From contig CAYHEW010000020.1 in NCBI GenBank assembly GCA_964355715.1, forward strand, positions 5,529 to 69,528: a stretch of 64,000 nt of DNA, in the 5' to 3' direction. Both the position numbers and the translations under genes were made by a program. The notes under the pieces were generated by a model, which saw only the letters and a list, made by a program, of their open reading frames with translations, had not been told where the DNA came from and searched no databases. Shown here piece by piece: positions 3,557 through 21,735 of the stretch. Numbering within the stretch: position 1 is the first letter of the stretch; each line of letters opens with the position of its first letter. This DNA is from an uncultured Opitutaceae bacterium. GTDB lineage: Bacteria; Verrucomicrobiota; Verrucomicrobiia; Opitutales; Opitutaceae.

Positions 3557-5047
3557 CTACCTGGCGGGAAGCGAGACTGCCGCCGCCTGTCGCTGCCACC
3601 GCCGCAGCAGGCCCAGCGCCGCCAGCGCGGTTAGGAACCAGGTGCTCGGGGCGCCGCCACCACCACCGCCTCCTCCGCCGCCGGTCGTGGGAGTTGTGAC
3701 GATGACAGTCGGGTTGACGGTCAGCTGCACGGTGCTGCTGGTGACTGAGCCGTAGAAGTTTGAGACGACGACGTGGTAGCTGCCGGCGTTGGCGGACTGG
3801 GCGCTGGCGATCGTGTAGTCGGGGCCGGTCGCGCCCGTGATGGCGCTGCCGTTGAAGTACCATTGGTAAGTCAGGATTCCACCGGTGGCGGTCACGCTGA
3901 AGGTCGTGCCGGTGCCGGCGGTCACCGTGCGCGCGACCGGCTGCGTCGTGATGGTCGGCGCAGTGCCGGCAACCGCGGCCAGCGCGAGGTTGAGGGTGAC
4001 CTGGCCGAAGAGTGAATCCCAGCCGTCCACGGCGAGGTAATAGGTCGTGCCGGCGGTGACGTCGAAGGTGATGGTGCTCGTGCGGATGCGATCGTCGCGG
4101 GGGTTCTGCTGGGGCGTCTCGGCATCGTCATTGCCGGCGAGCCCGGTCAGGCTGCCCACCGCCGTGCCCGTGTAGGCGGCCAGCAGCGTGTCGAAGTTGC
4201 TGCCAAGGGTCGTGACGGTCAACTTGCCCGCGGCCGGGGCGGTGAAGCGCCACCAGACGGAGCGACCACCGGTGCTTGAGGCGTGGTTGGGCTCGCCGAG
4301 TTCCTTGCTCCCTTGAATATTGGTGCCCGTGACCGAGACGCTCGCGCTCGTGACGGCGACGGTGACCGCGTTCGCGAAGCTGTCGTTGGCCGGGATGCTC
4401 GCCGGCGCGCCGTAAAGCGTGCGGGCGCCGGTGATGTCGTCGGTCTGCAGCTCGTAAAGGTTGCCGATGCGGCTGTTCATGACCGCGGTCACCGTCTGCC
4501 CGGCCTCGTCGGGATGGCCGAGACCCAGCACGTGCCCCAGCTCGTGCAGGGCGACGCGCTGGATGTCGTAGGCGTCGGACCGGATCTGCCCGCGGTAGGA
4601 GTCGAAGGTGTAGGCGGAGTTGAAAACAATGTCGGATTCGACCCGGTTGTCGCCGATCGTGTACGAGACGGTCACGGCCAGCGTATTGGCCGGGAAATCC
4701 TCGCCGCCCACCTTGTCGGACGAGGCAATCTCATTGAGGCGGTTGCCCTCGGTGTGGGCGCCGGCGAGCTGGACCGAAGAGGTGAACTGGACGGTGCCGA
4801 CGATGCCGTTCCAGGTCTGCAGCGCGGCCTGCGCGCTCGCGTTGTAGGAGGAGGCGCCGTCGGTGAGGGTGCGGGTGGGCGCCGGCAGCTTGAGCTGCAT
4901 GGCGATGGTGCCCTGTTCCCAGGCGATCACGTAGGGGGTGTTGTCCCCGGTGATCAGGTCAAAGGCCGCCAGCGGTGCGGCGGCGAGGGCCGCGAGAACC
5001 AGCGGCAGGCCGAGCCGGCAAAAACGGAGGCGGTACGGCGCGTTCAT
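3557..5047 (-). CDS. secreted zinc metalloprotease (M10/matrixin-like) with PPC-like and Ig-like domains and a GlyGly-CTERM-type tail
   Basis: Signal peptide MNAPYRLRFCRLGLPLVLAALAAAPLAA. Zincin motif HELGHVLGLGHPDE. Pre-peptidase-C-like segment (NDSFANAV...WWRF...LAAY...GNDD). Ig-like segment (YQWYFNGSAITGATGPDYTI...AGSYHVVVSN). Tail is G10-APSTWFLTALAALGLLRRWQRQ. Confidence 0.85.
   Translation of the reverse strand: MNAPYRLRFCRLGLPLVLAALAAAPLAAFDLITGDNTPYVIAWEQGTIAMQLKLPAPTRTLTDGASSYNASAQAALQTWNGIVGTVQFTSSVQLAGAHTEGNRLNEIASSDKVGGEDFPANTLAVTVSYTIGDNRVESDIVFNSAYTFDSYRGQIRSDAYDIQRVALHELGHVLGLGHPDEAGQTVTAVMNSRIGNLYELQTDDITGARTLYGAPASIPANDSFANAVTVAVTSASVSVTGTNIQGSKELGEPNHASSTGGRSVWWRFTAPAAGKLTVTTLGSNFDTLLAAYTGTAVGSLTGLAGNDDAETPQQNPRDDRIRTSTITFDVTAGTTYYLAVDGWDSLFGQVTLNLALAAVAGTAPTITTQPVARTVTAGTGTTFSVTATGGILTYQWYFNGSAITGATGPDYTIASAQSANAGSYHVVVSNFYGSVTSSTVQLTVNPTVIVTTPTTGGGGGGGGGGAPSTWFLTALAALGLLRRWQRQAAAVSLPAR
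3560..3682 (-). other. C-terminal sorting signal (poly-Gly + hydrophobic helix + basic cluster), GlyGly-CTERM-like
   Basis: Ten consecutive Gly codons at 3653-3682, using mixed GGC/GGA/GGT. They are followed by STWFLTALAALGLL and RRWQRQ. Confidence 0.65.
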
Positions 5048-5670
5048 CGGCGGTAGGCGCGGCGAGCGCTTTTGATGGCTTGGACGAACTGTTCCGGCGT
5101 GAGCGCCTGCCCCGGATCGCGCAGGCGGCGGAGACGTTCGGCCAGGTCCCCCTGCGCCATCGGCATCGCGACCTCGTCGGCGGTGAGCAACGGCACGAGG
5201 TTGCTGCGGTTCATATACCGGCGGCCGGTGCGCTTCGCGTCGGCCATCACCGGGTACTGCCCGTGCATCATCGCGTAGAGCGGACTGAAGGCGCGGCCGT
5301 TGCCCTTGATGAAGAGGACGTCCTCGGCGCCGACGTAAAAGACCGGCGCGCCCTGCACCGTGAGCTTCCGGTCGCCGACCTGCCCGCCGAGCATCGTGAG
5401 CACCAACGGTTCCGGCGGCTGGCCGGCGATGACCTCCAGGACCTCAAGCTCGACCTTGGTATGGATGAGCTCCTTCCCGTCCTTGACGCTGGCTTCGGCG
5501 GTGACCGCCTTGACCCTAGCCCGAACGACGTAATCCGAGCCGTTCACCAGCTCCGGAAATTCCGGTGGTACCACCGTGGTGGCCGCGAGGCGGCTGCCGG
5601 TGAGGCCCCAGCCGACGAGGGCGGCGAAGAGCAGGAGGCGCAGCGCTGGTCCGGGAGTCGTGGAAGTCAT
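5044..5670 (-). CDS. hypothetical secreted protein, translationally coupled to the metalloprotease
   Basis: Starts at ATG 5670 (MTSTTPGPALRLLLFAALVGWGLTG, a signal peptide). Its stop overlaps the protease start as ATGA (5044-5047). The upstream part of track ORF 5044..6096 is antisense to gspD. No family recognised. Confidence 0.7.
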   Translation of the reverse strand: MTSTTPGPALRLLLFAALVGWGLTGSRLAATTVVPPEFPELVNGSDYVVRARVKAVTAEASVKDGKELIHTKVELEVLEVIAGQPPEPLVLTMLGGQVGDRKLTVQGAPVFYVGAEDVLFIKGNGRAFSPLYAMMHGQYPVMADAKRTGRRYMNRSNLVPLLTADEVAMPMAQGDLAERLRRLRDPGQALTPEQFVQAIKSARRAYRR

Positions 5671-5820
5671 GCCGGGAACAAAAGGGCCATGGAGGAGCCT
5701 AGGTTGACCCGCCAGCGTGCCTTTCGGTTCCGGCCAAGACAAGCCATGGCTTGTCATGCACCGGGGATGGGATTTGATCCCTGCCAAGGTCCGAGTCACC
5801 GGCACCCGTCCCAGGCACCC

Positions 5821-7814
5821 ATGAAATTCCCCTTCCCCACGCGCGGCTGCTCCTGCCTCCTGCTGGTCCTGGCCCTCGCCGGCACCGATCCTCTCGCTGC
5901 GCAGGCCCCCGCCGGTCGCACGCTGGCGTCCACCGACCTCGTCGGGCCGCTCACCATCCCCGGCGGCAGCCTCGACGACATCCTCGGCGCCGTCGAGCTC
6001 CTCACCGGCCGCACGATCCTGCGCCCGCAGAACCTCCCCGCGGTGACCCTCTCGCTGAACCTCAAGGAAAAGGTCTCCCGCCAGGAGGCCATCCAAGCCG
6101 TTGAAACCCTGCTCAACCTCAACGGCATCGCCATCACCCCGCTCGGCACGCGCTTCCTGAAGGTCACGCCGCTCAACGCCGCGAAGTCCGAGGCCCCCGA
6201 CTTCATCGAGGGGTCCACCCTCGACCTACCCCCGAGCGGCCGCACCGCGAGCAAGCTCTTCCAGCTCGAGTTCCTCCGCGTCGGCGAATTCATGCCGCAG
6301 ATCGGCGGCCTGCTCAACCCCGCCGCCGGCTCCCCGCCCGTCGTGTTCGACAAGAGCAACGCCGCCCTCATCACCGACTCCGTCAGCAACCTCCAGCGCA
6401 TCGAGACCCTCGTCGCCAAGCTCGACCAGCCGCTCCTCGCCGGCCTGAAGCCCAAGTTCTACTCGCTGCAGTCCGCCAAGGCCAGCGACGTGGTCAACAA
6501 GATGCGCGCCATCCTCACCGGCCCGCTCCAGACCCAGCTCGGCTCCGCGACGTCGTACAACCCCGACGACCGCACGAACCAGATCATCCTCATCGCCGAC
6601 CCGCGCCAGCACGGTTTCTTCGACGAACTGATCGCCAAGCTCGACGTGCGCGCCGACCCCAACACGCGCAACGAGGTCCTCTTCCTCAAGCACGCCGCCG
6701 CCAAGGACGTCGCCACCATCCTCACCCAGCTCGTCACCGGCCAGAACAACGCCGCCCGCCAGCAGGGCGCCGAGACTCCGCGCGTCGCCGGGGCCACGCC
6801 CGCCGCCACCTCCCCGGCCGCCGCAACGCCCGCGATATCGGTCGCCGCGCTCGGCCTCGCGATCGAGTCATCCAACCAGTTCAGCGCGCTCCTCACCATC
6901 CTGCCCGAGGAACGCAGCAACTCGCTCGTCGTCTCCGGCACGGTGGACGACATCCGCCTCATCAACGACCTCGTCGCCAAGATCGACGTCCTCCTCGCCC
7001 AGGTGCGCATCGAGGTCGTCATCGCCGAGGTCACCCTCACCGACGCCAACTCGTCCGGCATCAGCACCCTCGGCCTGCGCCTCGAGGGCAGCAAACTCGT
7101 CGGGTTCTCCGGCACTGGCGCCGGCACGAGCGTGACCGAGGCCGTGTTCTCGCGGCCCACGCCGGGCGAAACCGACCTCGCGGCCACCATTGCCCTCTCG
7201 ACCACGCCGCGGAAGTCCAACGCCACCATCCTCTCGCAGCCCAACATCATCACCACCCACAACAAGGAGGGCCGCATCTTCGTCGGCGAGCAGCGCCCCG
7301 TCATCAGCAGCTACCTCAACGACGGCTCCACCACCTCCTCCGGCAACATCGTCGGCACCGGCTACCGCAGCACCGTCGGCCAGCAGAAGATCGGCATCGA
7401 GCTGGTCGTGAAGCCGCTCATCGGCACCGACGGCTCGGTGCAGCTCGACATCAAGCAGGTCGTGGACGACGTGCTTGGCGAGATCACCATCGACGGCAAT
7501 CCGCAGCCGCGCGTCGGCAACCGCGAGACCGAGTCCTTTGTCAGCGTCCGCAGCGGCGAGATCATCGTGCTCGGCGGCCTCCAGCGCACCTCCGACACGA
7601 AGAGCAGCAACCGCCTCGGCCCGATCCCGATCATCGGCGACCTCCTCGGCGGCCGCTCGAAGGAAGTCTCCCGCACCGACCTCGTGTTCTTCCTGCGCCC
7701 AACGATCCTGACCAACACCCCGGCCGACAACGCCCCCGCGCTCCGCCAGATCGAGCAGCTCCCGGAAAAGCAGCGCGCCCGCATCGAATCCGCCCTCCAG
7801 CCGCCGGCCGCCAA

Positions 7815-7818
<4 letters not shown>
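5821..7818 (+). CDS. gspD: type II secretion system secretin GspD
   Basis: 665 aa from ATG 5821 with a signal peptide. Has N-domain repeats and secretin-domain motifs (ILSQPNIITTHNKEGRIFVGEQRPV, VKPLIGTDGSVQLDI, SGEIIVLGGL, PIPIIGDLLG...DLVFFLRPTIL). Confidence 0.9.
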
Positions 7819-9512
<1,694 letters not shown>

Positions 9513-9646: not shown

Positions 9647-10870
9647 ATGCCTTCCTTCGCCTACACCGCGCGCAACGCCGACGGCCAGACCGTGAGCGCT
9701 GTGCTCGACGCGCCCTCGCGGCGCGAGGCCGCGCGGGTGCTGGCCGCGCGCGGGTTGCAGCCGATCAGTCTGGCGGAGGCGAGCGAGGCCAATGGCGGGG
9801 GCACCCCACGCGCCGCGCGCCGGTCAACGCGGGCCTTCGGCGCCGACCTGCAACTCCCGTTCCTCCAGGCGCTGGCCGACCTCACCGGCAGCGGCATGCC
9901 GGCGGGCGAGGCGGTGCGCCTGCTCGGCCGCCGCCTCCAGGAACCGCGCCTGCGCGCGCTGTGTGGTTTTCTTTGGGAGCGCCTGAGCGAGGGCCTGCCG
10001 CTGTCGTTGGCGCTGCAGTCGCAACCGGCGGTTTTTCCAAGCCACACGGTCAGCCTGGTCGCCGCCGGCGAGGCGACGGGTAATCTTCGCGAGGTCCTCA
10101 CGCGGTTGATCCAGCACTACACCGCCCGCGAGGAGATGCGGCGCCTCATCGTCACGGCGCTCGCCTACCCCCTCCTCATCTGCGGCGTCGCGATCGGCGT
10201 CATCCTGTTCTTCATTTTCTTCCTGCTGCCGCGGCTGCAGACGCTCCTGAACTCGCTCGGCGGGCAACTGCCCTGGGCGACACGGCTGCTCGTGGGCCTG
10301 TCCGACGCCGTGCTGCACTACGGCCTGCCCGCGCTGATCCTCGGCGCGCTCGGGGCGGCCGCGCTCTGGCGCTGGCGCCTGACGCCCGCCGGACGGCTGC
10401 GCACCGATGCGCTCCTGCTGCGCGTGCCGTTCGTCGGTCGGTTTGTCACCTCCGCGACCGTTCATAATTTCAGCCAGACCCTGGCGGTTCTCCTCGAAAA
10501 CGGCATCACGACCGCCGAGGCGCTGCGCATGACCGAGCGCACCATCCCGAACCGGGCGCTGCAGGCGGCCTTCGGCACGGCCACCAGCCGCGTGCTCGAG
10601 GGCGAGAGCCTCTCCCAAGCGCTGGGCCGCACCGGCTGCTTCCCGCCGCTGGTCATCGACCGCCTCGCCGTCAGCGAAAGCACCGGCCACCTCGCCCCGG
10701 GCCTGCGCGGCATCGCGCAGAACTACCAGGACGAACTCAGCCGGCAGGTCCGCGCCTTCACCCAGATCATTTCCACCGGCGTCCTCCTCGCCGCCTTCGC
10801 CTTCGTCGCCTTCATCGCCTACGCGATCGTGTCGGCGGTCTTCCAAGTCAGTACGAGCTTCAAATTTTAG
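9647..10870 (+). CDS. gspF: type II secretion inner-membrane platform protein GspF
   Basis: 407 aa from ATG 9647 (MPSFAYTARNADGQTVSAVLDAPSRREAARVLAARGLQPISL). Has the two GspF-type repeats and TM segments. The upstream part of track ORF 9290.. is read-through of gspE and the repeat. Confidence 0.9.
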   Translation: MPSFAYTARNADGQTVSAVLDAPSRREAARVLAARGLQPISLAEASEANGGGTPRAARRSTRAFGADLQLPFLQALADLTGSGMPAGEAVRLLGRRLQEPRLRALCGFLWERLSEGLPLSLALQSQPAVFPSHTVSLVAAGEATGNLREVLTRLIQHYTAREEMRRLIVTALAYPLLICGVAIGVILFFIFFLLPRLQTLLNSLGGQLPWATRLLVGLSDAVLHYGLPALILGALGAAALWRWRLTPAGRLRTDALLLRVPFVGRFVTSATVHNFSQTLAVLLENGITTAEALRMTERTIPNRALQAAFGTATSRVLEGESLSQALGRTGCFPPLVIDRLAVSESTGHLAPGLRGIAQNYQDELSRQVRAFTQIISTGVLLAAFAFVAFIAYAIVSAVFQVSTSFKF

Positions 10871-10997
10871 GGCCGGAGCCGGCCAAGGGTAAGGCAGAAG
10901 GCCGAGGCGACTTGGCAAAGTCGGGCTTGGCCCATTATTGCCGGTTTCACGATGCCGTCTTGAACTAGCGACACCGGTCGTGCTCCACTTTCACCCC

Positions 10998-11324
10998 ATG
11001 ACCAAACCGACCTGCCCTGCCTGCACGATGACCGATGTGCTCAGCCATCCCGATCACTGGGAGTGTGGCACCTGCGGACACGAGTGGCCCAAGGCAGCCG
11101 CTCCCGACACACCTCAAATCGTGAAGGACGCCCACGGCAATGTGTTGGTTGACGGAGACAACGTCGTCTTGATCAAGGACCTCAAGCTGCGCGGCTCATC
11201 CGGCGTCCTCAAACAAGGCACCAAGGCGAAAAACATCCGGTTGGTCGACGGTGACCACGAGATCGACTGCAAGATCGAGGGTGCAGCCATGGCGCTCAAA
11301 GCGTGCTTCGTGAAGAAGGCCTGA
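10998..11324 (+). CDS. phnA: PhnA/YjdM zinc-ribbon protein
   Basis: 108 aa with CPAC...CGTCGHEW. The C-terminal block IVKDAHGNVLVDGDNVVLIKDLKLRGSSGVLKQGTKAKNIRLVDGDHEIDCKIEG...FVKKA closely mirrors E. coli PhnA. Confidence 0.85.
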   Translation: MTKPTCPACTMTDVLSHPDHWECGTCGHEWPKAAAPDTPQIVKDAHGNVLVDGDNVVLIKDLKLRGSSGVLKQGTKAKNIRLVDGDHEIDCKIEGAAMALKACFVKKA

Positions 11325-11445: not shown

Positions 11446-11922
11446 TCATGCGACGAGAATATAGAGTAACTCCTCTACGCGGGCACCGCTCGGTGCGGAA
11501 AATGCATCTTCACCGACGCGAGCGAACCCTGCTTTCTCGAGCACGCGAATCGAACCGAGATTGTGCTTAGCGACGCGGGCACTGAGTGGCCGCGTCGACT
11601 CAAAGCGAAGGAACTGCGCCATCGCCGCGGAGGCGATACCTCGGCCCCAGAACTCACGACCGATCCAATAGCATATGAGCCGGTCGTTGGATGCGGCATC
11701 GGTCCATGCGCCAATGTTTCCGGCAACTTGGGCGCCCGCGAGAATGGTGCGGCTTACGGCCGCGGGATTGCCGAGGATATTGGTGGTCCAATGGGTGAAA
11801 AACGCATCTCGATCCCTTGAGGGGAATGCGGCGAGCTTGGTGGCCTCGGGATCGAGCTGATGAACGAAGAAGATCGAGAGATCGTCAGCTTCAACAGGAC
11901 GGATTGATACTCGGTCTTTCAT
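11446..11922 (-). CDS. GNAT family N-acetyltransferase
   Basis: Core sequence (VSIRPVEADD..., WIGREFWGRGIASAAM, ARVAKHNLGSIRVLEKAGF) fits GNAT. Start chosen at ATG 11922 (MKDRV...). A longer form from ATG 12057 or GTG 12060 would abut the rhomboid stop (TGATG) but adds low-complexity sequence. Confidence 0.7.
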   Translation of the reverse strand: MKDRVSIRPVEADDLSIFFVHQLDPEATKLAAFPSRDRDAFFTHWTTNILGNPAAVSRTILAGAQVAGNIGAWTDAASNDRLICYWIGREFWGRGIASAAMAQFLRFESTRPLSARVAKHNLGSIRVLEKAGFARVGEDAFSAPSGARVEELLYILVA

Positions 11923-12056
11923 TTTGCCGAACGGTTCAGACCCGACACGCGGGCCGAGCGAGAACTTAGTTTCGGATGCGGATGAATCATGCCGACTGGT
12001 GCCATAGGGGAGTGATTCATGGTGCCTAGTTCTGTCTGGGGCGGAAGCGTCACCCA

Positions 12057-12741: not shown

Positions 12742-14328
12742 CTAGCTCGCCTTTGGCTTCGCCTTGCGGTCGGACAGTTTCTTGAGCGCGAGCAGCGCAC
12801 CAGCGGCGCCGAGGCCCCAGAGCGAGACCGCACCGCCGCCACCACCACCGCCACCACCCACGGTCGAGATCGCCGGCGGGGTCGTCGGCGTCACCGTGGC
12901 ACCGCCCGTCACCGGGGTCGAGGCGCCGTATAGCCCCAGCTCCGGCCGACCGCCGAAACGGCTGCTGAAGGCCGGGAGTACGTAGTTGAGGTCGCTGTCG
13001 CCGACGCCGAACCATTTCAGCATGTCGCGCGCATACTCGTCCACCGCGACCCCGGGAATCAACCGGCCCTGGCCGGTGTCGATCTGCGCGAGGTTCTGGA
13101 AGTCGGGATAGTAGCCCTGGTCCTTGTTGCCGTAGACGTTGCCGCCCTTCACCGCGCCGCCGAGGACGAAGTGGTTGCCGCCCCAGGCGTGGTCGGAGCC
13201 GTTGCCGTTCGACTTGAGGGTGCGGCCGAAGTCGGACGCGGTGAACAGCGTGACGTTGTTCTGGAGGCCGACCTCGCCCAGCGCCTGCCAGAACGTGTCC
13301 ACGGCCTGGCTGACGGTGCGCAGCATGGTGGTCTGGTTGTTGATCACCTCGTTGTGGTGGTCCCAGCCGCCAAACTGCACGAAGAATACCTGCCGTCGCG
13401 CCCCGAGGCGCCCGCCGGCCGCGGCGGTGCGGGCCACCATCGCGAGGTTCGAGGCCACGCTGTTGCCGGTCGGCACCGGCGTCGTGAGCGTCGAGCCGGC
13501 CAAGGCCGCGGCAAATTCGTAGTAGGCATCCACGGCGTCACGCGACGAGTTGCCGAAGGATTTCTCGAAGATGCGGCGGTAATCGGCCTCGAGCAGGCTG
13601 TCCACCGCAGCCGAGCGCAGCGCAGTGAGGCTGTTGGCGGCCATGGGATTGTAGCCGGTGAGGGCGGTCGCCCCGCTGGAGTTGATGCTGTAGGTGAAGA
13701 CCTGCTGGCCGGTGAGGAAGATGCTCTGGCCGGAAAGCGAGATGTTCATCGACACGACGCCCGGGGTGTTGAGGGAGCGGATGATGTCGGCGGCGCGTCC
13801 GCCCCAGCCGATGGCGGTACGCTGGTCCGGGATGCAGGTCTGCCACTGCTTGATCTGGTCGGCGTGCGAGTAGAGCGAGACAGGCCGGTAGCGGCCGGCC
13901 GTGTAGTCGGCCAGGGTGGTCGGGCGGACGAGCGAACCGACATTGGACACGAACGCGAGGCGGCCTGCGTTGAACAGGTCGCGCACCTCGGTCATCGAGG
14001 GATGGATGCCGAGCGTGCGCCCGCCGAGGTTGCCGGGCGTGACCTGCAGCAGCGACTCGCGCGCGAGCGCCAGCCCGCTGCGGGCCGCGGCGTAGGCGTT
14101 GTATTCGGCCGAGGTCGTCGGCACGAGCATGTTGAACGAGTCGTTGCCACCGGCGAGGAAGAGGCAGACGAGCGCCTTGTAGTCCGAGGGCGCAGTCTGC
14201 GCCGCGAGCGAGTTTGCCAGCCGCAGGCTGAGGAGGGTCGAGAAGAGGGCGGTGGCCCCCACCCCGGCGCAACTGGCCTGGCCGATGAACTCGCGGCGGG
14301 AGAGCGGAGGGGTGGCGGGAGGCTTCAT
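12742..14328 (-). CDS. DUF1501 (sulfatase-like) protein with Tat signal and GlyGly-CTERM-type tail
   Basis: Twin-arginine motif SRREFIGQASCAGVGATALF. DUF1501 hallmarks GGNDSFNMLVP, FGGWDHH, GSDHAWGG. Tail is G9-AVSLWGLGAAGALLALKKLSDRKAKPKAS. Confidence 0.85.
   Translation of the reverse strand: MKPPATPPLSRREFIGQASCAGVGATALFSTLLSLRLANSLAAQTAPSDYKALVCLFLAGGNDSFNMLVPTTSAEYNAYAAARSGLALARESLLQVTPGNLGGRTLGIHPSMTEVRDLFNAGRLAFVSNVGSLVRPTTLADYTAGRYRPVSLYSHADQIKQWQTCIPDQRTAIGWGGRAADIIRSLNTPGVVSMNISLSGQSIFLTGQQVFTYSINSSGATALTGYNPMAANSLTALRSAAVDSLLEADYRRIFEKSFGNSSRDAVDAYYEFAAALAGSTLTTPVPTGNSVASNLAMVARTAAAGGRLGARRQVFFVQFGGWDHHNEVINNQTTMLRTVSQAVDTFWQALGEVGLQNNVTLFTASDFGRTLKSNGNGSDHAWGGNHFVLGGAVKGGNVYGNKDQGYYPDFQNLAQIDTGQGRLIPGVAVDEYARDMLKWFGVGDSDLNYVLPAFSSRFGGRPELGLYGASTPVTGGATVTPTTPPAISTVGGGGGGGGGAVSLWGLGAAGALLALKKLSDRKAKPKAS
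12745..12858 (-). other. C-terminal sorting signal (poly-Gly + hydrophobic helix + basic cluster), GlyGly-CTERM-like
   Basis: Nine Gly codons at 12832-12858 (mixed GGT/GGC), then SLWGLGAAGALLAL, then KKLSDRKAKPK. Confidence 0.65.
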
Positions 14329-14332: not shown

Positions 14333-16051
14333 TCACTTACTCACGGCGGCGTCCGGCGAGGTCGCCACGAGATACACGGCCAGCCGGGCCTTGGTCTGGT
14401 TGAGGGTGCTGCCCGAGGGCACCATGGCGGTGGTCACGCCGTTCACGGCCGCCAGCACGGCGTTGCGCGTGGCGTCGCTAATCGTGCCGTGGGCCAGCAG
14501 GAGGTTGAGGTTGTCGAGCAACGCGGCGGAATTGGCTGCGAGCGTCTCCTGTTCCGCGAGGTTGAGGGCGAACCGCCCCGCCCCAGTCTGCGTGAGGGTG
14601 TAGAGCGCGTTGGGCAGCGTGACCGCGAAGACCGAGGTCAGGATCTGGTATTCGGGTCCGACGAGGCCGGCATCGCCGATCGGGCCCGGCGGCCGGTGAT
14701 CCGGCAGGTAGAAGTTGAAGACCGAAGGCGACGCGAGCGGGAACTGGCCGATGGTTGATTCGGAAATGGTCGAGCCGAAGTCGTAGGGCAGCGTGCCGTC
14801 CTGCACCGTGTAGCGCATCGCCCGCAGCAGGCCGGTGACGCGCAGGAAGGGCTCCTTCAGTTTGCCGGAGTTGGCCTGCGCGATCGACGACAGGTTCCTT
14901 GCCTCGGAATCAAGGAGGATGGCGCGGACGACCGCGAGCAGGTCGCCGCGCTGCCCGGCGCCGTTGTTCACGAAAACCGCGGCCACGCGCCCGACGTAGG
15001 CCGGGCTGGGATTCGAGGTGACGAGCCGCTGGATAAGCTGGCGCGAAATAAAGGGCGCGGTGCTCGGATGCTCGATGAGGTTGTCGAGCGCGTCGGCCAC
15101 GTCCTGCACGCCGCCCTGGTTGGCCGGCAGGACCGGCTTGCGGGCACCCGCATACGCCAGGAGTGTCTTGCTGCCCTGATCGTGCTGGAGCTCCCACATC
15201 AGCATGGGCTGCGTGTAGTTCTGCGCCGCCGAAGGGAAATCCGTCCGCCCGGTGCCGGTGCCGACGGCGTTGGCATTGTTGTTCTCATCGGTGAACCCGG
15301 TGAAGACCCGGGCGAACTCCGAGATGTTGGGATTCGTGTAGGTCTCGACCGGGCGCCCGCTGGCATCGGTGACGATGGTCCCATCCGCAGTCAGCTGGTA
15401 GAGCCCGATGGTGAAGAGCTGCATCACCTCGCGGGCGTAATTCTCGTCCGGCTGGGTGCCCGCGGTGGGGTTGGCCTTGCGGTTTTTATAGTGAGTCAGG
15501 TACCGGCCCATCATCGGATGGCGGGTGACGTCCATCAGCAGGGTGCGAAAACTGCCGAGGGCGTTGCGCGCGAGCAGGTCGTAGTAGCTGCTGGATCCCT
15601 CCTGGCCGTTGGTAATCGCCGATTCGAAGTCGGAGATGACCATGATCTGGCTGAGGGCGTAGGCCACGCGCTGCCGCAGTTGGTCGGACCCGGCGAGCAT
15701 GACCTGGGTGCGGGCGCGGCGGTTGGTGGCACGGTCGAAGGTGGTGATCTGGCCGGCGTTCTTGGCGGCCTGCAGCAGGGCGACGGCGGAGCTTGCCGGC
15801 TTGGCGGCCTCGAGGTCGATCCACCGGCTGTAATCGTAGCCCAGGCCACGGAGTTCGGCGATGGACTCAGGCGTGGCGCCGAAGGTGGCCTGGGAGAGAA
15901 AGCGGGACGCCTGCTGGTCGGCCGTCAGGCTCGTCGCCGGATCCACCGCGGCGAAAAGTCCGCTCGCGCCGGCCAACAAAGCGAAACCCAGGCAGAGGGT
16001 TTGCAGGCGGGGTACGGGGGGAACCACGACTGAAGATGGGGCCAAACGCAT
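14333..16051 (-). CDS. DUF1800 domain protein (usual partner of DUF1501)
   Basis: 572 aa with a signal peptide. Motifs: FLSQATFGATPESI and ENYAREVMQLFTIGLYQL. Lies 4 nt upstream of the DUF1501 gene. Confidence 0.85.
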   Translation of the reverse strand: MRLAPSSVVVPPVPRLQTLCLGFALLAGASGLFAAVDPATSLTADQQASRFLSQATFGATPESIAELRGLGYDYSRWIDLEAAKPASSAVALLQAAKNAGQITTFDRATNRRARTQVMLAGSDQLRQRVAYALSQIMVISDFESAITNGQEGSSSYYDLLARNALGSFRTLLMDVTRHPMMGRYLTHYKNRKANPTAGTQPDENYAREVMQLFTIGLYQLTADGTIVTDASGRPVETYTNPNISEFARVFTGFTDENNNANAVGTGTGRTDFPSAAQNYTQPMLMWELQHDQGSKTLLAYAGARKPVLPANQGGVQDVADALDNLIEHPSTAPFISRQLIQRLVTSNPSPAYVGRVAAVFVNNGAGQRGDLLAVVRAILLDSEARNLSSIAQANSGKLKEPFLRVTGLLRAMRYTVQDGTLPYDFGSTISESTIGQFPLASPSVFNFYLPDHRPPGPIGDAGLVGPEYQILTSVFAVTLPNALYTLTQTGAGRFALNLAEQETLAANSAALLDNLNLLLAHGTISDATRNAVLAAVNGVTTAMVPSGSTLNQTKARLAVYLVATSPDAAVSK

Positions 16052-16246: not shown

Positions 16247-16768
16247 TTAACGCACGAGCTCAGCCGCGACGACCCGGAAGGTGGCGTTGACCTGGCCCGG
16301 CGCACCGCGGTCGTTCGTGAGCGTCATCTGCTCGATCCCCACGTACGGGGAACGATCCGCCAGCGTCTCGTAGAAGCGCACCAGGGCACCGAGGTCGGCG
16401 CGGCGGAAGCTCACCTGCGCCGAGTGAAACGAAAACTGGGCCGTGCGCTCGGTGCGCTGACCGGAAACTTCCGCGGAAAGGGCGGCGGCGGTCGCGAGGC
16501 GGTTGAGTTCGCCCACGAGGCGCGTGCCGTTGAGCGTCTGGGCCGGCTCAAGCTGGTGCACGGCGGCCGCAGCGCGTTCCTCGATCGCCTCGCGGTTGGC
16601 GAGCCAGGCCGCCTGCGTCTCCTGCCCGGCCCGCAGCGAACGGTACTCCAGCCACCGGTCGCGAACGCGGCCGACGCCGCCGAACAGCCAGGCGCCGGCG
16701 GCGAGCAGCACAAAGGCCAGCACGAGAACCTGCTCGCGCACGGTGCGGGTGAGAAAATACCTCTTCAT
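16247..16768 (-). CDS. T2SS assembly protein, GspM/PilO-like
   Basis: 173 aa with a single N-terminal TM (VLVLAFVLLAAGAWLF) and a periplasmic domain. It is the last gene of the pseudopilin operon. Its start overlaps the upstream stop (ATGA at 16765-16768). Confidence 0.55.
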   Translation of the reverse strand: MKRYFLTRTVREQVLVLAFVLLAAGAWLFGGVGRVRDRWLEYRSLRAGQETQAAWLANREAIEERAAAAVHQLEPAQTLNGTRLVGELNRLATAAALSAEVSGQRTERTAQFSFHSAQVSFRRADLGALVRFYETLADRSPYVGIEQMTLTNDRGAPGQVNATFRVVAAELVR

Positions 16769-17901
16769 GGCTTGTCCTCCCCTACCAACGCCTCCGGCTT
16801 GAAGGTCGCCGTGAATTGAAACGTGGTCACGCCCTCGCGCAGGCGGACGTCGCGCACCTCGGCCGCCGCCAGCACGGGCAGCGCCTTGAGCGCGGCCTCG
16901 AAGGTCCCGACGCTGGCGGCGTCGGCCGCCTGACCCTCGACTTCCAAAGTGGTCAGCCCCGCCGTGCTACAGCGCACGAACCGCACGGCCGGCGGGCGCA
17001 CGTCATTGACCAGGGCCAGCATTTCCATCGGCCGCAGCCGCCGCGCCGTCATCTCCTCGATCCGGGTGCCCAGGGCCTGCGCCGTCTCGATGCGGCTCAC
17101 CTCGCCGGCGCGCCCCGCCTGCTCGGCACTCCAGCGCGCAAAGACCCGGTCGGTCGCAAACAAGCCGGCCTCCAGCACCGCACCCGCCGCCAAGCCGATC
17201 AGGCAAGCCACGAGCGTGCGCCACAGGATGACCTCCCGCCGAAGCGCCTGCCGCCGCGTCGCCAGCACGGTCTTGTCACGAACATCCATTGAAGCCAGCG
17301 CTTCCGGCGCGAGTGCGGTACGCAACGACCGCCCGGTGCCCCGGCCGGCGAGAGTCAACTCCCAGCCGCGGTCCGACGGCAGCGGCTTCACGGTCACGGG
17401 GCCGGCAAATTCGTCCACTTCGGGCCGCCGGCCGCCGAGGCGCTGCACGACTTCGTCAAGCAAAGCCGCCCGGACGACCGCCTCGTCCTCAGTGGCGACC
17501 GCGCGCGCCAACACGAGATTGGGCAGGGCAGACCGCCCATCCCAGGCCGCGGCCATCACGCATCCCGGCGCCTGCCAGAGGCGCACGCGCTCCGCCCCGG
17601 GCGGTTCGCCGAGCAGGGCTGCGAAAACGGGCAGCACGACACCCGCCTGCGGCCAGCCATCGCCGGGGAACAGGCGCCGGTGCGTCGCAAAGGCGAGCGC
17701 GCTCCGGCCGTCGGGCGCCGCGTGGTAGCCGTAGTAAAGCTGCTCGAGCGCAAAGGGGGCAGCGATCTCCAAGCCCAATTCCACCTGCGCCGGCGCCGGC
17801 GCGATCGGGTCCAGCGTCACGCGCCGCACGAAAAACGCCTCCGCCGGCAGCCAGACGAGGGCGTCCGCCGGGGAGCGGGAGGATTGGGCGGGCGGGTTCA
17901 C
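16765..17901 (-). CDS. T2SS assembly protein, GspL-like (cytoplasmic domain + TM + PilN-like periplasmic domain)
   Basis: 378 aa with a central TM (ILWRTLVACLIGLAAGAVLEAGLF). Position between the gspK-like and gspM-like genes supports the call. GTG start overlaps the upstream stop (GTGA). Confidence 0.5.
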   Translation of the reverse strand: MNPPAQSSRSPADALVWLPAEAFFVRRVTLDPIAPAPAQVELGLEIAAPFALEQLYYGYHAAPDGRSALAFATHRRLFPGDGWPQAGVVLPVFAALLGEPPGAERVRLWQAPGCVMAAAWDGRSALPNLVLARAVATEDEAVVRAALLDEVVQRLGGRRPEVDEFAGPVTVKPLPSDRGWELTLAGRGTGRSLRTALAPEALASMDVRDKTVLATRRQALRREVILWRTLVACLIGLAAGAVLEAGLFATDRVFARWSAEQAGRAGEVSRIETAQALGTRIEEMTARRLRPMEMLALVNDVRPPAVRFVRCSTAGLTTLEVEGQAADAASVGTFEAALKALPVLAAAEVRDVRLREGVTTFQFTATFKPEALVGEDKP

Positions 17902-18986
17902 AGGGCGGGAGACGGCATTTCCGAGGGGTCGGGATCCTCGCGAATCTCCAACACCGCCAACGGGTAGTCCAATCTTTTGCGTTCAGTGGGCGGCGCCGCG
18001 TTGCCATCCGCCGGGGCGCTCTCCCCCGCCCGCTCCGGCGCAACCGCCGCACCCGGGGCGGCGACGACCGCCAAAATCCGATAGGCGATCGCGCCCTGCC
18101 GGATGGTGATTCCGATGCGCCAGGCCGCCACCTCCGCGCCGAAACGGGTGCCGTCGGCCGCCGCCCCAATCACCGACCCCGCCTCCGCCACGGAGCGGAA
18201 GTATCCCGGGGCCTCAGGATCCAGCGGCCGCGCGCGGTGCTCCGCCAGGGCCGTCACCTCCGCCGCACCCAGACCGAGCGTCAGCAACACGCTCGGGGTG
18301 GCTGTGTTCAGATTCGTCACGTTGAAGGCATGCAGCGAAAAATCGTCGCGGAACGCGCGGAACGCCGCCGTGGGCGATCCATCCGCCAAAAAGAACACCG
18401 GCCGGTCGAGCTGCACCGCCGCCAATTCGCCCCAACTCCGCAAGGCGCGCCGGGCCGGGCGATAGGCCGGGTCCTCGCCCGCATAGTCAGGCGCCTCGGC
18501 CACCGGCGGCTCGTCCGCCCGCCCGGCGCGGATCCAGTCCCGCAGCACCACCGCCATCCGCTCAGCCTCCGCCGGCACCACCCCGGCGCCTTCCAGCGCG
18601 GTCTGCAGGGTGACGGCATCGGCGCGCGGGAGGGAGATCTTGGCGGACTCGTCCGCCAGCACGATCTCGAGCGTGCGTCCGACCGCGGGCGCATACACGC
18701 CGGCCTCGAGCAGGGCCGCCCAGCGCGGATCGGGCTGATGCCACGCGCCGGCCTCGGCCCGATCGGCCGCCAGGATGGCGATAAGCGACTCCAGCGCCGA
18801 ATACGCCTCGGCCCGCAATTGCCTCCGCTCCGCCGCGCGTGCGTCCGCCAGCAGCTCGGTGCCGGTGCGACGGATGAAGGCCGCGAGCAAAAATGAAGCG
18901 AGCAGCAGCGTGACCAACACGAGCACGATGATGGCCCCGCGGCGCGGATCGTGTCCTGGAAGGGTCATTTCGGCGCGCGGCTTCAT
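17898..18986 (-). CDS. gspK: T2SS minor pseudopilin GspK-like
   Basis: Starts at ATG 18986 (MKPRAEMTLPGHDPRRGAIIVLVLVTLLLASFLLAAF), 2 nt after the upstream stop. Has the GspK-like segment ADESAKISLP...LRSWGELAAV and helix-hairpin-like repeats. Confidence 0.65.
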   Translation of the reverse strand: MKPRAEMTLPGHDPRRGAIIVLVLVTLLLASFLLAAFIRRTGTELLADARAAERRQLRAEAYSALESLIAILAADRAEAGAWHQPDPRWAALLEAGVYAPAVGRTLEIVLADESAKISLPRADAVTLQTALEGAGVVPAEAERMAVVLRDWIRAGRADEPPVAEAPDYAGEDPAYRPARRALRSWGELAAVQLDRPVFFLADGSPTAAFRAFRDDFSLHAFNVTNLNTATPSVLLTLGLGAAEVTALAEHRARPLDPEAPGYFRSVAEAGSVIGAAADGTRFGAEVAAWRIGITIRQGAIAYRILAVVAAPGAAVAPERAGESAPADGNAAPPTERKRLDYPLAVLEIREDPDPSEMPSPAL

Positions 18987-18988
18987 GC

Positions 18989-19633
18989 TCAGAAATGCGA
19001 CAGCGGTCCCGGGGCCGCTGGCAGGGTGACGGTCGTCTCGGCTTTCATCTCGCCGTGGACAAAGCCCAAGCGCAGGCGCGCCGGCAGCGCCCAGCGTCCG
19101 CCGCTGTCGCGCTGCAGGTTGTCCTGCCGTCGCCAGGCGCCCCCGTTCGGATCCCGGTATTCGAACGCCAGCGTCCGCACAAATGGCGTCATGACCCACG
19201 GCCGCGGCGTCGCGTCGGCGAATTTCTCCTCCAGGCGCGACTGCCAGTAGAGCACAAGCCCGGCGGGTTCGACCACGAGCGAGCAGACGACATCGGGCAG
19301 GGCCGCACCCGGCCAGGGCAACCGCGGGCTGCCCTCGGACAATTCAAAGCTGAGCGCCGCCTCACGCCGGCCGCTGGCCAGCCGGATCTCCCGGGCAAAG
19401 ACCGTCGGATCCGCCGCCAGCGGCGGCAGGGCGCCGCGGCGGATGAGTTCCTCGACCTCGCGCGTCACCGCGCGCACATGCTGCTCGAACAGGCGCCGCT
19501 CCGCCCCGCGGCCCCAGATCTCGGCCATGGAGAAGACGAAGAAATTCAGCGCCAGCAGCAGGGCGCCGAGCAACGCCGCCGCCAGCAGGGTCTCGATCAG
19601 CGTGAAGCCGCGGACTGGACGCATCCGGGTCAT
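18989..19633 (-). CDS. T2SS minor pseudopilin GspJ-like
   Basis: Prepilin leader MTRMRPVRG/FTLIETLLAAALLGALLL. ATG 19633 overlaps the upstream stop (ATGA at 19630-19633). Confidence 0.65.
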   Translation of the reverse strand: MTRMRPVRGFTLIETLLAAALLGALLLALNFFVFSMAEIWGRGAERRLFEQHVRAVTREVEELIRRGALPPLAADPTVFAREIRLASGRREAALSFELSEGSPRLPWPGAALPDVVCSLVVEPAGLVLYWQSRLEEKFADATPRPWVMTPFVRTLAFEYRDPNGGAWRRQDNLQRDSGGRWALPARLRLGFVHGEMKAETTVTLPAAPGPLSHF

Positions 19634-20157
19634 GGCCGCTCGGCCTCCTCGCGGCGTTCGTTCCACTGGACGCGGAGCTGTTCGCGCCGGGTCGGGTCCG
19701 ACCACGTGGGACGCAGCAGGTTCACGGTCTGGGTGAATTCCTCCGGCTCCTTCGCGCCATCAATGCGGCCGCGCACTTCCACCCGAAACAGGTCCGGCAC
19801 GGGCAATTCCTCGAGCGTGGCGGTCCATTGCAGCTGTCGGCCATCGGGCAGCGGCACGCTGCCGCCCTGCTCCACTTTGGTGCGGTCGGGTTCGTTGAGG
19901 ATCGCCTCGCGCAGGTATTCCATGCCCGGCCCGTCCACTGCGCGCCGGGCCACCGCAGCATGGGCCGACATCGTGTTGACGTAGGCCGCGCCGAGCACGA
20001 CCGCCGCCATGGCAAGGATCGCGATGCCGACGAGCACCTCGAGGAGGGTGAACGCGTTTTGTTTCCAGACGGGCTCTCGCGCCTGCCCTCCGTAGGCCTT
20101 GCGAAGGAGGGGAGGCGCGGAGGGCGCGGAGGAGGAACCAGTGAACTCTGATTTCAT
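19630..20157 (-). CDS. T2SS minor pseudopilin GspI-like (start ambiguous: 20157 or 20241)
   Basis: Prepilin motif ...WKQNA/FTLLEVLVGIAILAMAAVVLG. The only in-frame start codons are ATG 20157 (35-aa leader) and ATG 20241 (63-aa leader, ATGA overlap with the gspH stop). Both leaders are partly encoded by a repeat element. Confidence 0.6.
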   Translation of the reverse strand: MKSEFTGSSSAPSAPPLLRKAYGGQAREPVWKQNAFTLLEVLVGIAILAMAAVVLGAAYVNTMSAHAAVARRAVDGPGMEYLREAILNEPDRTKVEQGGSVPLPDGRQLQWTATLEELPVPDLFRVEVRGRIDGAKEPEEFTQTVNLLRPTWSDPTRREQLRVQWNERREEAERP

Positions 20158-20218
20158 CCCTATTTTTGAGTCCAGTTCAGAGGTCTTTAGCTCCGCGCCC
20201 TCCGCGCCTCCGCGAGAG
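20111..20218. repeat. GCGGAG-module inverted repeat (family A) inside the gspH-gspI junction
   Basis: Left arm ggaggcgcggagggcgcggagg (20111-20132). Right arm ctccgcgccctccgcgcctccgcgagag (20191-20218). The right arm differs from 3515-3542 at one position (gcgcc versus gcggc). Confidence 0.75.
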
Positions 20219-20237
20219 AAAAATAACGTCCCGAAAT

Positions 20238-20765
20238 TCATTGTGCTGCCTTTTCCGGGCTGAGGGCGCAGGTCCAGGGGTCGGCCTGCCAGATGCGCGC
20301 CGGGGCCTTGTCGAGTTGCAGGCGGACGCGGAACGGATCGCAGGTGCCGTCGGCGAAGAAGCGGATGCGGCGCAGCTCGTCGGTCTCCACCGCCTGGCCG
20401 CCGAGCAAAATCACCGCGCCAGTCGCCGGCGGGAGGAGCGCGACCTGGCTGCCGGTTTCGAACACCAGATCGGACACCGCGGCGTTGTCGGCGCGGAGCG
20501 CGCGCCGCTCCGCATCGTAGGTGAGCGTGACGGTTTTCCCGGACTCGAGCGCGGCGCCGCGGGCAGCGAGAACGGTTTCGGCGAGGGTTTGCTCCGGTCC
20601 GCGTTCGTTGATCTGGCGCAGGATCGAATTCACCCCCGGGATGAACAGCGCCGAGAACAGCGCGAGGAGGGCGAGGACAAGGAGGATCTCGATGAGGGTG
20701 AAGCCGCCGGCGGGTGGCCGGGCGCTACCCAAATCTGCGCTGCGCGACTGCCGGGACTTCACCAA
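20238..20765 (-). CDS. T2SS minor pseudopilin GspH-like
   Basis: Leader ...SARPPAGG/FTLIEILLVLALLALF. Start is TTG 20765 or GTG 20762 (GTGA overlap with the gspG stop). Confidence 0.65.
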   Translation of the reverse strand: MVKSRQSRSADLGSARPPAGGFTLIEILLVLALLALFSALFIPGVNSILRQINERGPEQTLAETVLAARGAALESGKTVTLTYDAERRALRADNAAVSDLVFETGSQVALLPPATGAVILLGGQAVETDELRRIRFFADGTCDPFRVRLQLDKAPARIWQADPWTCALSPEKAAQ

Positions 20766-21184
20766 TTGCCGACGTCGTCTTCCGTGCCGTCGGTCTTGTC
20801 GGGGCCGACGGAATACAGGTCGTAGCCGCCAGAGTTCTTCGTGCCGGGGAAGCGGTAGCGGTAGGCTTCACCCCAGGGGTCGGTCGGCACCCGGTTGCCG
20901 GGCACCTCGATATAGGGTCCGCGCCAGCGCTCGGCCTTGCCGGCGGGGGCCGCGAGGAGGGCGGCGAGGCCCTCGTTGGTCGACGGGTAGTCGCCGAGGT
21001 CGATGCGGTAGCGCACGAGGGAGGTCTTGAGGGAGTCGCGCACGAAGACGCGGGCGACGGCCTCCTGGCTCTGGCCGAAGATCTTGTCGCTGTTGCTGAT
21101 GGCGAGGCCGGCGAGGAGGCCGACGATCGCGAGCGCAACGAGGATCTCGAGGAGGGTGAAGGCGTAGATGCGGGCGGTGGACAT
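20759..21184 (-). CDS. gspG: T2SS major pseudopilin GspG
   Basis: MSTARIYA/FTLLEILVALAIVGLLAGLA. C-terminal GspG hallmarks are present: WRGPYI, DPWGEAYRYRFPG, GGYDLYSVGPDKTDGTEDDVGNW. Confidence 0.9.
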   Translation of the reverse strand: MSTARIYAFTLLEILVALAIVGLLAGLAISNSDKIFGQSQEAVARVFVRDSLKTSLVRYRIDLGDYPSTNEGLAALLAAPAGKAERWRGPYIEVPGNRVPTDPWGEAYRYRFPGTKNSGGYDLYSVGPDKTDGTEDDVGNW

Positions 21185-21186
21185 GG

Positions 21187-21735
21187 CTAGGGTTTGCGGA
21201 GAGGTGGGGCGGGCGCGGCGGTGCCAGGCGGGGGCGCGGCCTGCTGGCGCAGGGCGCGGCGACGGCGGATCTCGGCGGCAAGGTCGGCGAGGCGCTTAGC
21301 CTCGGCGGAGTCGGTCGCGGCAACCGTGGCGGGCGTCGGTATCACGGTTCCAGTCGGGGCCGGAGCCGGGGCCGCGGGGCCGGCGGCGACCATCGGCGCC
21401 TTGCTGAGGCTGAGGGTGAGGCTGCGGCCCTTGAATTCTGCGACGATGGTCTGCGCGCCCTCGTCGTAGCTGCGGACGAAGAACTCCTGACCGGCCTCGT
21501 TGAGCGCGACCCAGACCGAGGCCCGGGTGGCGGGGTTGAAGACGCTGAAGAAATGCTCACCCTGGTCCATGAAGACGCCGCGGAACTCGAGCGGGGCGGT
21601 GTTTCCGGCCTGGCCGGGCGTCCCTGCCGGGGCGAAGGGCGAATTGGCCACGAGCCGCTGCAAGTCCACCGCGAGCGCGGGAGCGGCCGCGAGGGACGCG
21701 GCGGACAGGAAGAGCATGATGCGGGGAAAACCCAT
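21187..21735 (-). CDS. secreted/anchored protein upstream of gspG, possible GspC-HR/PilP-like
   Basis: Starts at ATG 21735 (MGFPRIMLFLSAASLAAAPALA). The beta-rich block LEFRGVFMDQGEHFFSVFNPATRASVWVALNEAGQEFFVRSYDEGAQTIVAEFKGRSLTLSL resembles the HR/PilP pattern. Followed by a Pro/Ala linker and a basic tail. Stop lies 3 nt before the gspG start. Confidence 0.45.
   Translation of the reverse strand: MGFPRIMLFLSAASLAAAPALAVDLQRLVANSPFAPAGTPGQAGNTAPLEFRGVFMDQGEHFFSVFNPATRASVWVALNEAGQEFFVRSYDEGAQTIVAEFKGRSLTLSLSKAPMVAAGPAAPAPAPTGTVIPTPATVAATDSAEAKRLADLAAEIRRRRALRQQAAPPPGTAAPAPPLRKP

Follow-up and report, generated by a model that had tools for sequence, protein, structure and literature searches.

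We analysed a window of 64,000 nucleotides from an uncultured Opitutaceae bacterium (assembly GCA_964355715.1, contig CAYHEW010000020.1, positions 5,529 to 69,528), in which genes of a type II secretion system (T2SS) lie together with a rhomboid protease of the rhombosortase type, two candidate cargo genes whose products end in poly-glycine tails, and a small gene, p218, for a protein predicted to adopt the TIMP fold. The G+C content of the window is 68%. The proteins closest to those of the window come from Opitutaceae metagenome-assembled genomes (MAGs), and two window proteins have exact copies on public contigs. We interpret the locus, with a probability of about two in three, as the form that the rhombosortase/GlyGly-CTERM surface-sorting pathway takes in Opitutaceae, with its genes placed among those of the T2SS. 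An earlier reading of the same sequence (hereafter the original prediction) had placed all of its genes correctly (Table 1). It had described the M10-type protease and gspD as divergent and directly adjacent; they are divergent, but p218, which overlaps the start of the M10 gene by 4 nt, intervenes, and it is the p218-M10 pair that diverges from gspD. The distance of 40 nt between the DUF1501 stop codon and the start of the rhomboid was given correctly, while the DUF1800 gene that precedes DUF1501 had been omitted.

Table 1. Genes of the cluster in the 64,000-nucleotide window and the matches on which their names are based
Feature	Position	Strand	Basis
M10 protease (cargo 1)	3557-5047	-	Pfam PF00413 Peptidase_M10, PPC, Ig_3
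p218, TIMP-fold partner gene (208 aa)	5044-5670	-	AlphaFold2 and Foldseek
gspD, secretin	5821-7818	+	TIGR02517 best match; Pfam Secretin, Secretin_N
gspE, secretion ATPase	7815-9512	+	TIGR02533 best match; Pfam T2SSE, 446 bits
gspF, inner-membrane platform protein	9656-10870	+	TIGR02120 best match; Pfam T2SSF, two stretches
yjdM	10938-11324	+	
GNAT acetyltransferase	11446-12060	-	
Rhombosortase (RrtA/RssP-type rhomboid intramembrane serine protease)	12057-12701	-	TIGR03902, 99.4 bits
DUF1501 protein (cargo 2, 528 aa)	12742-14328	-	PF07394, 119 bits
DUF1800 gene, without tail	14333-16051	-	PF08811, 277.6 bits
gspM	16247-16768	-	
gspL	16765-17901	-	Position
gspK	17898-18986	-	
gspJ	18989-19636	-	
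gspI	19630-20241	-	
gspH	20238-20765	-	
gspG	20759-21184	-	
First gene of the pseudopilin operon, gspC position	21187-21735	-	Position only

The score of the rhomboid on the curated rhombosortase model lies above the equivalog cut-off of 84 bits, and this was its sole NCBIfam match. The enzyme was therefore classed as a rhombosortase, as had been predicted, and not as a generic rhomboid of the GlpG type. It is 86% identical to a homologue from 'Opitutaceae bacterium ACE_VER3', and its relatives are named 'rhombosortase' in public annotation. When it was aligned with Rheinheimera and gammaproteobacterial rhombosortases, the catalytic serine (transmembrane helix TM4, GGLSAVDL), the histidine (TM6, SAHLAAAAYA) and the WRxxT loop (WWRLWT) were found to be kept. 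The match to the curated model supports its assignment as a divergent Opitutaceae rhombosortase.

Both candidate cargos carry, at the extreme C-terminus, a glycine motif, a helix with an early aromatic residue and a basic cluster. The M10 protease ends in G10-APSTWFLTALAALGLL-RRWQRQ..., with G10-APSTWF at the junction. The DUF1501 protein ends in G9-AVSLWGLGAAGALLAL-KKLSDRKAKPKAS, where AVSLW(G) is followed by the hydrophobic helix and the basic KKLSDRK. Both tails terminate long open reading frames (ORFs) with high G+C at third codon positions (GC3). A six-frame scan of the 64 kb looked for runs of at least four glycines that lead into a hydrophobic helix and a basic cluster close to the end of an ORF; it found only these two, in agreement with the prediction of two tail-bearing candidate cargos among the T2SS genes.

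The tails were conserved in relatives. M10 orthologues from 19 genome loci shared the consensus S/T-G5-11-A/S-P-S-x-W-F, followed by about 11 hydrophobic residues and R-x-x-R-R. A run of at least four glycines within the last 55 residues was present in 112 of 120 DUF1501 orthologues (68-100% identity; Lacunisphaera, Cephaloticoccus, Nibricoccus, Oleiharenicola and many MAGs), and most of the remaining eight have GGG; in the orthologue tails that were printed, the helix after the glycine run leads into a KK or RQKR cluster. A hidden Markov model (HMM) derived from the tails of relatives gave 38.6 bits with the window M10 tail, its only match in the window with E below 1. An HMM made from M10 tails only reached at least 10 bits on 36 of the 120 DUF1501 orthologue tails (maximum 34.5) and on none of 120 shuffled controls (maximum 3.2), so that one homologous signal is common to the two unrelated cargo families. 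Haft and Varghese argued in the same way that GlyGly-CTERM is a domain, from a tail common to unrelated families (PMC3237569). These comparisons support reading the tails as conserved domains, similar to sorting signals, that two unrelated cargo families carry.

We examined the linkage of cargo and enzyme in two scans. In the first, one genome per species was searched with the rhomboid as query, and window proteins were mapped onto the loci by tblastn. In about 20 of the 27 genome loci from Opitutaceae, including those of Opitutus sp. GAS368, Lacunisphaera, Cephaloticoccus and Oleiharenicola, the p218, tailed M10 and rhombosortase genes followed one another directly on the same strand; in the window, the tail-bearing gene directly upstream of the rhombosortase is that of DUF1501. 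Conserved synteny, on which the original prediction depended, was thus found for cargo and rhombosortase, with T2SS genes adjoining in a subset. The second scan, of metagenomes, was anchored on p218, an anchor that does not select for the rhomboid. Here M10 lay next to p218 in all 41 loci having at least 1.5 kb of downstream sequence. When unique complete M10 genes from the scans were pooled, a rhombosortase lay at most 2.5 kb downstream of 24 of the 32 tailed genes and of 0 of the 6 tail-less paralogues (Fisher p = 0.001, indicative only, as the genome loci had been chosen through the rhomboid). Such adjacency was described as a 'dedicated system' in 16 of 21 single-target genomes, with Opitutus terrae PB90-1 named among them (Haft and Varghese 2011, PMC3237569). 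The tail-less p218-M10 pairs are those of loci L071, L075, L077, L093, L118 and L124, where the protease ends in '...VEVYxxP' or '...IVAPSNAxIxITVP'. Tandem p218-M10 pairs, about 3 kb apart, occur at L082, L137, L138 and L141.

Among the T2SS genes of the window, gspG passed its model (TIGR01710, 109.7 bits, cut-off 88.85). The products of gspD, gspE and gspF found their best matches in the corresponding T2SS models but scored below the cut-offs (276.5 against 351, 526 against 630 and 275 against 424 bits, respectively). For gspH, I, J, K and M the matches to T2SS models and to prepilin N-methylation motifs were weak. The ORFs that the original prediction called gspL and GspC/PilP-like had no Pfam or NCBIfam match, and we name them by position; the latter (21187-21735) has a homologue at the corresponding place in relatives. 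The region yielded no prepilin peptidase.

The order and content of gspG-M were kept in L001, L007, L009 and L068, and T2SS genes adjoined the cargo-rhombosortase unit in at least three rearranged layouts. In the window, L007 and L009, gspC to gspM are followed by DUF1800-DUF1501 (absent in L007), the rhombosortase and, on the opposite strand, gspF-E-D. The p218-M10 pair then follows divergently in the window; the L007 contig ends within p218 and that of L009 past gspF, and shorter pieces of this arrangement are seen in L008 and L010. In L001 and L002, the closest relatives, the rhombosortase lies 35 nt past gspM with no DUF pair between them. In Oleiharenicola sp. Vm1 (L024) and the metagenome contigs L084 and L133, gspD is divergent from p218-M10-rhombosortase, and in L024 a DUF1800-DUF1501 pair with the tail lies on the far side of gspF. 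In L068, finally, gspJ-K-L-M, p218-M10-rhombosortase and gspF succeed one another, and the Gsp proteins are 38-54% identical to those of the window. A physical link between rhombosortase and T2SS genes appears to be unreported before.

The interval between the rhombosortase and gspF varied among close relatives. In the window it holds the GNAT and yjdM genes, and the G+C content falls to as low as 0.63 between 10900 and 12060; in L001, L002 and L007 several kb of small unknown ORFs take this position. The longest ORF of the GNAT gene, whose start is uncertain, overlaps the rhombosortase stop codon by 4 nt. A scan for promoters and terminators between 3300 and 22000 found only intragenic sites, with 1 promoter-like site against 0.7 expected; at this chance level it was uninformative on operon structure. 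Further along, at 32000-34000, a local dip in G+C (0.624) coincides with a strong positive AT skew, with a sodium:solute symporter gene and ABC-transporter genes on either side.

The M10 protease comprises a signal peptide, a catalytic domain (HELGHVLGLGH), PPC and Ig domains, a Thr/Pro linker, and then G10, APSTWF with the helix, and RRWQRQ. Its Pfam score (47.8 bits) exceeded the gathering cut-off of 24, the HExxHxxGxxH zinc motif is present, and the nearest PDB sequences to the catalytic domain were vertebrate MMP-1, -12 and -13. The DUF1501 protein begins with a Tat-like signal (LSRREFIG), which scored 13.7 bits on TIGR01409, below the cut-off of 16.7. DUF1800 is the usual upstream partner of DUF1501, and the pair is kept in other genera. 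If the pathway is real, a Tat-exported, folded DUF1501 protein would be passed to the rhombosortase and then to the T2SS. The same tail was found on further cargo, namely a 1194-aa GH26/CBM/NHL protein (a GH26 mannanase) in a Cephaloticoccus MAG (L025) and an M12-like protease in a more distant verrucomicrobial genome (L023), where its gene lies immediately upstream of the rhombosortase. The Ig domain of the M10 protease (residues 361-452) resembles Ig-like repeats of phage tail and decoration proteins in the PDB (9C2D, E 2.6e-35) more than other sequences there. In the GH26 and M12-like proteins, too, this Ig domain stands before the tail.

We used structure comparison to characterise p218, which had no Pfam (E up to 0.1) or NCBIfam match. 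The protein has a signal peptide followed by a conserved mature N-terminus, TTVVPPEF. In an alignment of 32 homologues, A | T-T/S-V-V-P-P-x-F directly after the signal peptide was invariant, and position -1 was always Ala or Gly, suggesting that Thr31 is likely to be the mature N-terminus. The AlphaFold2 model (pLDDT 90) was compared with the PDB using Foldseek. The top 20 matches were all TIMP-1, TIMP-2 or the agrin NtA domain (NTR fold), and the NTR domain of PCOLCE ranked 22. The best match was TIMP-2 (1BR9), with E 1.6e-4 and probability 1.00, though TM-scores were only 0.39/0.44. No structure of the Acinetobacter CpaB-type T2SS chaperone, which was considered as a model for p218, was among the matches. 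The relationship was found by fold comparison only: searches of PDB sequences with p218 as a single sequence and as a profile gave no TIMP match.

The N-terminus was then compared with TIMP-1, whose sequence was verified against PDB 1D2B. BLASTP aligned the mature N-terminus of p218 with TIMP-1 residues 1-22 without gaps and with residue 1 on residue 1 (9/22 identical, E 6e-4), placing TTVVPPEF in register with CTCVPPHP. Alignment of the p218 profile with N-TIMP-1 by hhalign gave the same register but was weak (E 0.0097, probability 4%), and mature p218 contains no cysteine; we therefore limit our claim to the fold and the wedge-like N-terminus and do not extend it to membership of the TIMP family. 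On the evidence of the model, we claim for p218 an OB/NTR (TIMP) fold with a wedge-like free N-terminus. The family, for which Pfam and NCBIfam have no model, is a large one. Of 1.84 billion cluster representatives searched with a profile, 12,013 matched at E up to 0.001 and 3,328 at the stricter limit of 1e-10, and the motif x-T/S-V-x-P-P-x-F was present in 128 of the top 149 matches. TIMPs fill the matrixin active site with their first residues, and their N-terminal amine binds the zinc; bacterial serralysin inhibitors (Inh/AprI) act similarly and are encoded beside their M10 protease, AprI being periplasmic. We regard p218 as a putative partner of the M10 protease in the periplasm, either its inhibitor or its chaperone.

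In the pathway that we propose, the M10 protease would use Sec for its export, and the DUF1501 enzyme probably Tat. The C-terminal helix would hold each cargo in the inner membrane with the basic cluster on the cytoplasmic side, and the rhombosortase would cut at the junction of poly-glycine and helix. By analogy with VesB, the new glycine C-terminus may then be transferred to a phosphoethanolamine lipid. The neighbouring T2SS would take the product across the outer membrane, leaving it on the cell surface. The TIMP-fold protein would most likely plug the M10 active site with its free N-terminus (Thr-Thr-Val-Val-Pro-Pro) in the periplasm; alternatively, it could serve as a secretion chaperone. 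The analysis itself established the family assignments, the architecture and conservation of the tails, the linkage of the genes and the fold of the partner protein; cleavage, lipidation and T2SS dependence, on the model of the Vibrio pathway, and inhibition are inferred.

Several observations weigh against this pathway, and most of them concern the tails and their setting. None of the tails, the two of the window and ten from relatives, reached the cut-off of the GlyGly-CTERM, PEP-CTERM or MYXO-CTERM models. At best, the window M10 tail gave 15.0 bits on TIGR03501 GlyGly-CTERM (cut-off 15.5), 19.6 on MYXO-CTERM (20) and 13.6 on PEP-CTERM TIGR02595 (16); the window DUF1501 tail matched none of these models, and the relatives' tails gave 14.4 bits or less on TIGR03501. 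The original description of the tails as GlyGly-CTERM-like therefore holds for their architecture of glycine run, helix and basic cluster but not by the score of the curated model. The window DUF1501 tail is also a weaker variant, with just 8.2 bits on the M10-tail HMM. Past the helix there are 13-15 residues in the window tails and up to about 25 in DUF1501 orthologues, compared with 0-5 in classical GlyGly-CTERM (PMC3237569). In the majority of rhombosortase loci (those of the Lacunisphaera / Opitutus sp. GAS368 type), T2SS genes are absent within 10 kb, and DUF1800-DUF1501 pairs bearing such a tail occur in unrelated neighbourhoods, far from rhombosortase and T2SS, in O. lentus, Nibricoccus and Lacunisphaera. 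This pattern fits a many-to-one system with scattered cargo and contradicts the prediction of a 'self-contained' module. Finally, experiments on rhombosortase sorting have been done in V. cholerae, with VesB and its other GlyGly-CTERM proteins, and for Verrucomicrobiota we found none in the literature.

The failure of the tails on every curated sorting-signal model, the long charged extensions of the DUF1501 orthologues (atypical for GlyGly-CTERM) and the missing T2SS link in most loci could also mean that the tails are plain, uncleaved inner-membrane anchors on a flexible poly-glycine linker, that the proteins are periplasmic and that the clustering with T2SS genes is a historical accident of one clade. 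The Tat-like signal of the DUF1501 protein points the same way, Tat substrates with C-terminal anchors being known. We consider this the strongest of three alternatives, especially for DUF1501, yet an unlikely one. Against simple anchors stand a signal that is common to unrelated cargo (M10, DUF1501, GH26 and M12-like) with conserved residues at the glycine/helix junction, and the close and repeated pairing with an enzyme recognised by the rhombosortase model. The T2SS link, moreover, survived at least three rearrangements, including one in the lineage with the divergent Gsp proteins.

A second alternative is that the tails are of the PEP-CTERM type and are processed by an exosortase, the rhomboid being a neighbour for other reasons. 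The score of the M10 tail on the PEP-CTERM model is near the cut-off, 'APS' loosely resembles 'PEP', and an exosortase lies 1-3 kb from the rhombosortase in six relatives; the window itself has a gene for a PEP-CTERM-associated ATPase-like protein together with one for an exopolysaccharide (EPS) sugar transferase, a further point against the rhombosortase pathway. The tails, however, contain no PEP motif and none of the ten from relatives matched the PEP-CTERM model. Among the major high-GC3 ORFs of the window that lie outside the cluster there was no exosortase, and a tblastn search with the L003 exosortase matched neither the window nor any other M10-rhombosortase locus. For these reasons we rejected an exosortase as the main sorting enzyme. 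Tailed M10 genes also track the rhombosortase, and we regard this reading as quite improbable; the outcome that the original prediction had named as fatal to itself, PEP-CTERM tails with an exosortase, was not observed.

The six loci with an exosortase (L003, L005, L006, L015, L017 and L019, of the Lacunisphaera / Opitutus sp. GAS368 type) have two different sorting enzymes close together. The exosortase is a fused EpsH/EpsI protein encoded two genes downstream of the rhombosortase, and a conserved protein of about 494 aa, with no Pfam match, directly precedes it. In the window, positions 25658-28592 (+ strand) hold a gene for an ExeA-like AAA ATPase (TIGR03015, XrtA/PEP-CTERM system-associated ATPase, 288 bits, cut-off 324.5), an unknown gene and a gene for an EPS polyprenyl glycosylphosphotransferase, which passes TIGR03025. 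These matches suggest that an exopolysaccharide locus linked to PEP-CTERM/exosortase lies some 4 kb away from the T2SS operon, and the source genome probably has a PEP-CTERM/exosortase system as well.

The remaining difficulty lies in the active site of the rhomboid. Rhombosortase-type motifs, noted in the original prediction, are present (WRxxT, GLS(A) and AH), but the hallmark His at Ser+4 and the oxyanion-hole Asn of the rhomboid HxxxN motif were missing, the window enzyme having Leu (SAVDL) and Asp at these positions. The His at Ser+4 (SGxLH) occurs in 'virtually all rhombosortases' and is the most diagnostic residue of the family (PMC3237569). In TM6, moreover, AxxxA replaces GxxxG (AHxxAxxxA against AHxxGxxxG). 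These features are shared by the Opitutaceae rhombosortase clade overall, which has L or V at Ser+4, N or D at +3, Asp for the HxxxN Asn and AxxxA in TM6. Members with the divergent motifs are the window enzyme and those of L003, L023, L024, L028 and L032, and the zetaproteobacterial L034 shares the Asp. A general GlpG-like quality-control protease that scores by chance on the rhombosortase model, with neighbours that are not its substrates, would explain the missing His and the altered TM6, but we hold this to be very improbable, given that the enzyme passes an equivalog cut-off, has no other NCBIfam match and adjoins tail-bearing genes in most loci in the manner of the dedicated systems. That the altered surroundings of the active site are linked with the altered tail is speculation.

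We therefore favour the rhombosortase/GlyGly-CTERM pathway encoded among T2SS genes. A fuller version of it, in which a divergent rhombosortase subfamily, a poly-glycine-APSxWF signal invisible to current models, coupling to the T2SS and control of a matrixin by a bacterial TIMP counterpart with its wedge in register all hold together, is possible but doubtful. Since the poly-glycine tails escape all current sorting-signal models, annotation of the surface proteomes in this family of soil and fresh water is incomplete, and a dedicated tail HMM would mend this. The conserved and repeatedly rearranged cluster of T2SS, rhombosortase and cargo genes offers independent comparative evidence that both machines cooperate, and a tractable gene set for a cultivable relative such as Oleiharenicola. 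The TIMP-fold partner provides a testable hypothesis for how a matrixin in transit through the periplasm is kept inactive. As a putative inhibitor, it would extend TIMP-like inhibitors to Gram-negative environmental bacteria, and if the wedge truly inhibits, TIMP-style inhibition of matrixins would not be an animal invention.

The kind of system was already recorded in silico for this family. Haft and Varghese listed in 2011 one GlyGly-CTERM protein adjacent to its rhombosortase in Opitutus terrae PB90-1, also of the Opitutaceae (PMC3237569), and with relatives already annotated as rhombosortases the suggestion that the system was unknown in the phylum does not stand. Their dedicated pairs resemble our loci in that a single-target gene adjoins the rhombosortase, and the pair that they list for O. 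terrae is very probably the M10-rhombosortase pair that we see in about 20 loci. The differences are that O. terrae was given one target, whereas we find at least two family-wide cargo families and others in single loci; that the 2011 study reports no link of rhombosortase to any T2SS subclass, whereas T2SS genes flank the unit here; and that it makes no mention of the TIMP-fold partner gene. New in our analysis are thus a variant of the tail that escapes every model, a divergent signature of the active site, a T2SS linkage that is conserved and was rearranged repeatedly, the TIMP-fold partner, DUF1501 as a second family-wide cargo, and the GH26 and M12-like cargo in single loci.

For p218, the closest parallels are the pairs of TIMP and matrixin, serralysin and Inh/AprI, and Listeria Mtz-Tim, a metzincin with a TIMP-like partner (PMC8235301); the likeness of p218 to these is that of a small secreted protein of the OB/NTR fold encoded beside an M10-type metzincin. 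Listeria Tim differs in being a lipoprotein that is cleaved by its protease. With TIMPs (MEROPS I35), p218 shares the free N-terminus, T-T/S-V-x-P-P in register with C-T/S-C-V-P-P; it differs by Thr in place of Cys1, the lack of disulfides and of a Pfam TIMP match, and an extra helical C-terminal region. The tails, in turn, resemble those of the MYXO-CTERM/myxosortase and PEP-CTERM/exosortase systems in their tripartite C-terminal signal of motif, helix and basic cluster, and T2SS-dependent surface display is believed to occur for MYXO-CTERM proteins (PMC11980579). They have no invariant Cys and no PEP motif, and the neighbouring enzyme is a rhomboid and not a CPBP-type myxosortase or an exosortase.

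The nearest characterised system is the RssP/VesB/Eps T2SS pathway of V. cholerae (Gadwal et al. 2018, PMC6219818; Roberts et al. 2026 preprint). To arrive at the cell surface, VesB depends on its GlyGly-CTERM, on rhombosortase and on the T2SS; it is cut to expose the second Gly and then joined to a glycerophosphoethanolamine moiety (PMC6219818). The Opitutaceae system, known here from sequence analysis, differs in that it belongs to Verrucomicrobiota, its components are physically clustered, its enzyme lacks the His at Ser+4, and the SGG/GG motif is replaced by 5-11 glycines with APSxWF in tails below the TIGR03501 cut-off. Three components are shared by both: a TIGR03902 rhomboid; hydrolase cargo in which a disordered linker leads to a glycine-rich motif, helix and basic tail; and a T2SS, in the Opitutaceae a probable one, of the Gsp type. 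The cargo is also of like kind (proteases and other hydrolases), and in both systems one enzyme would serve several cargos.

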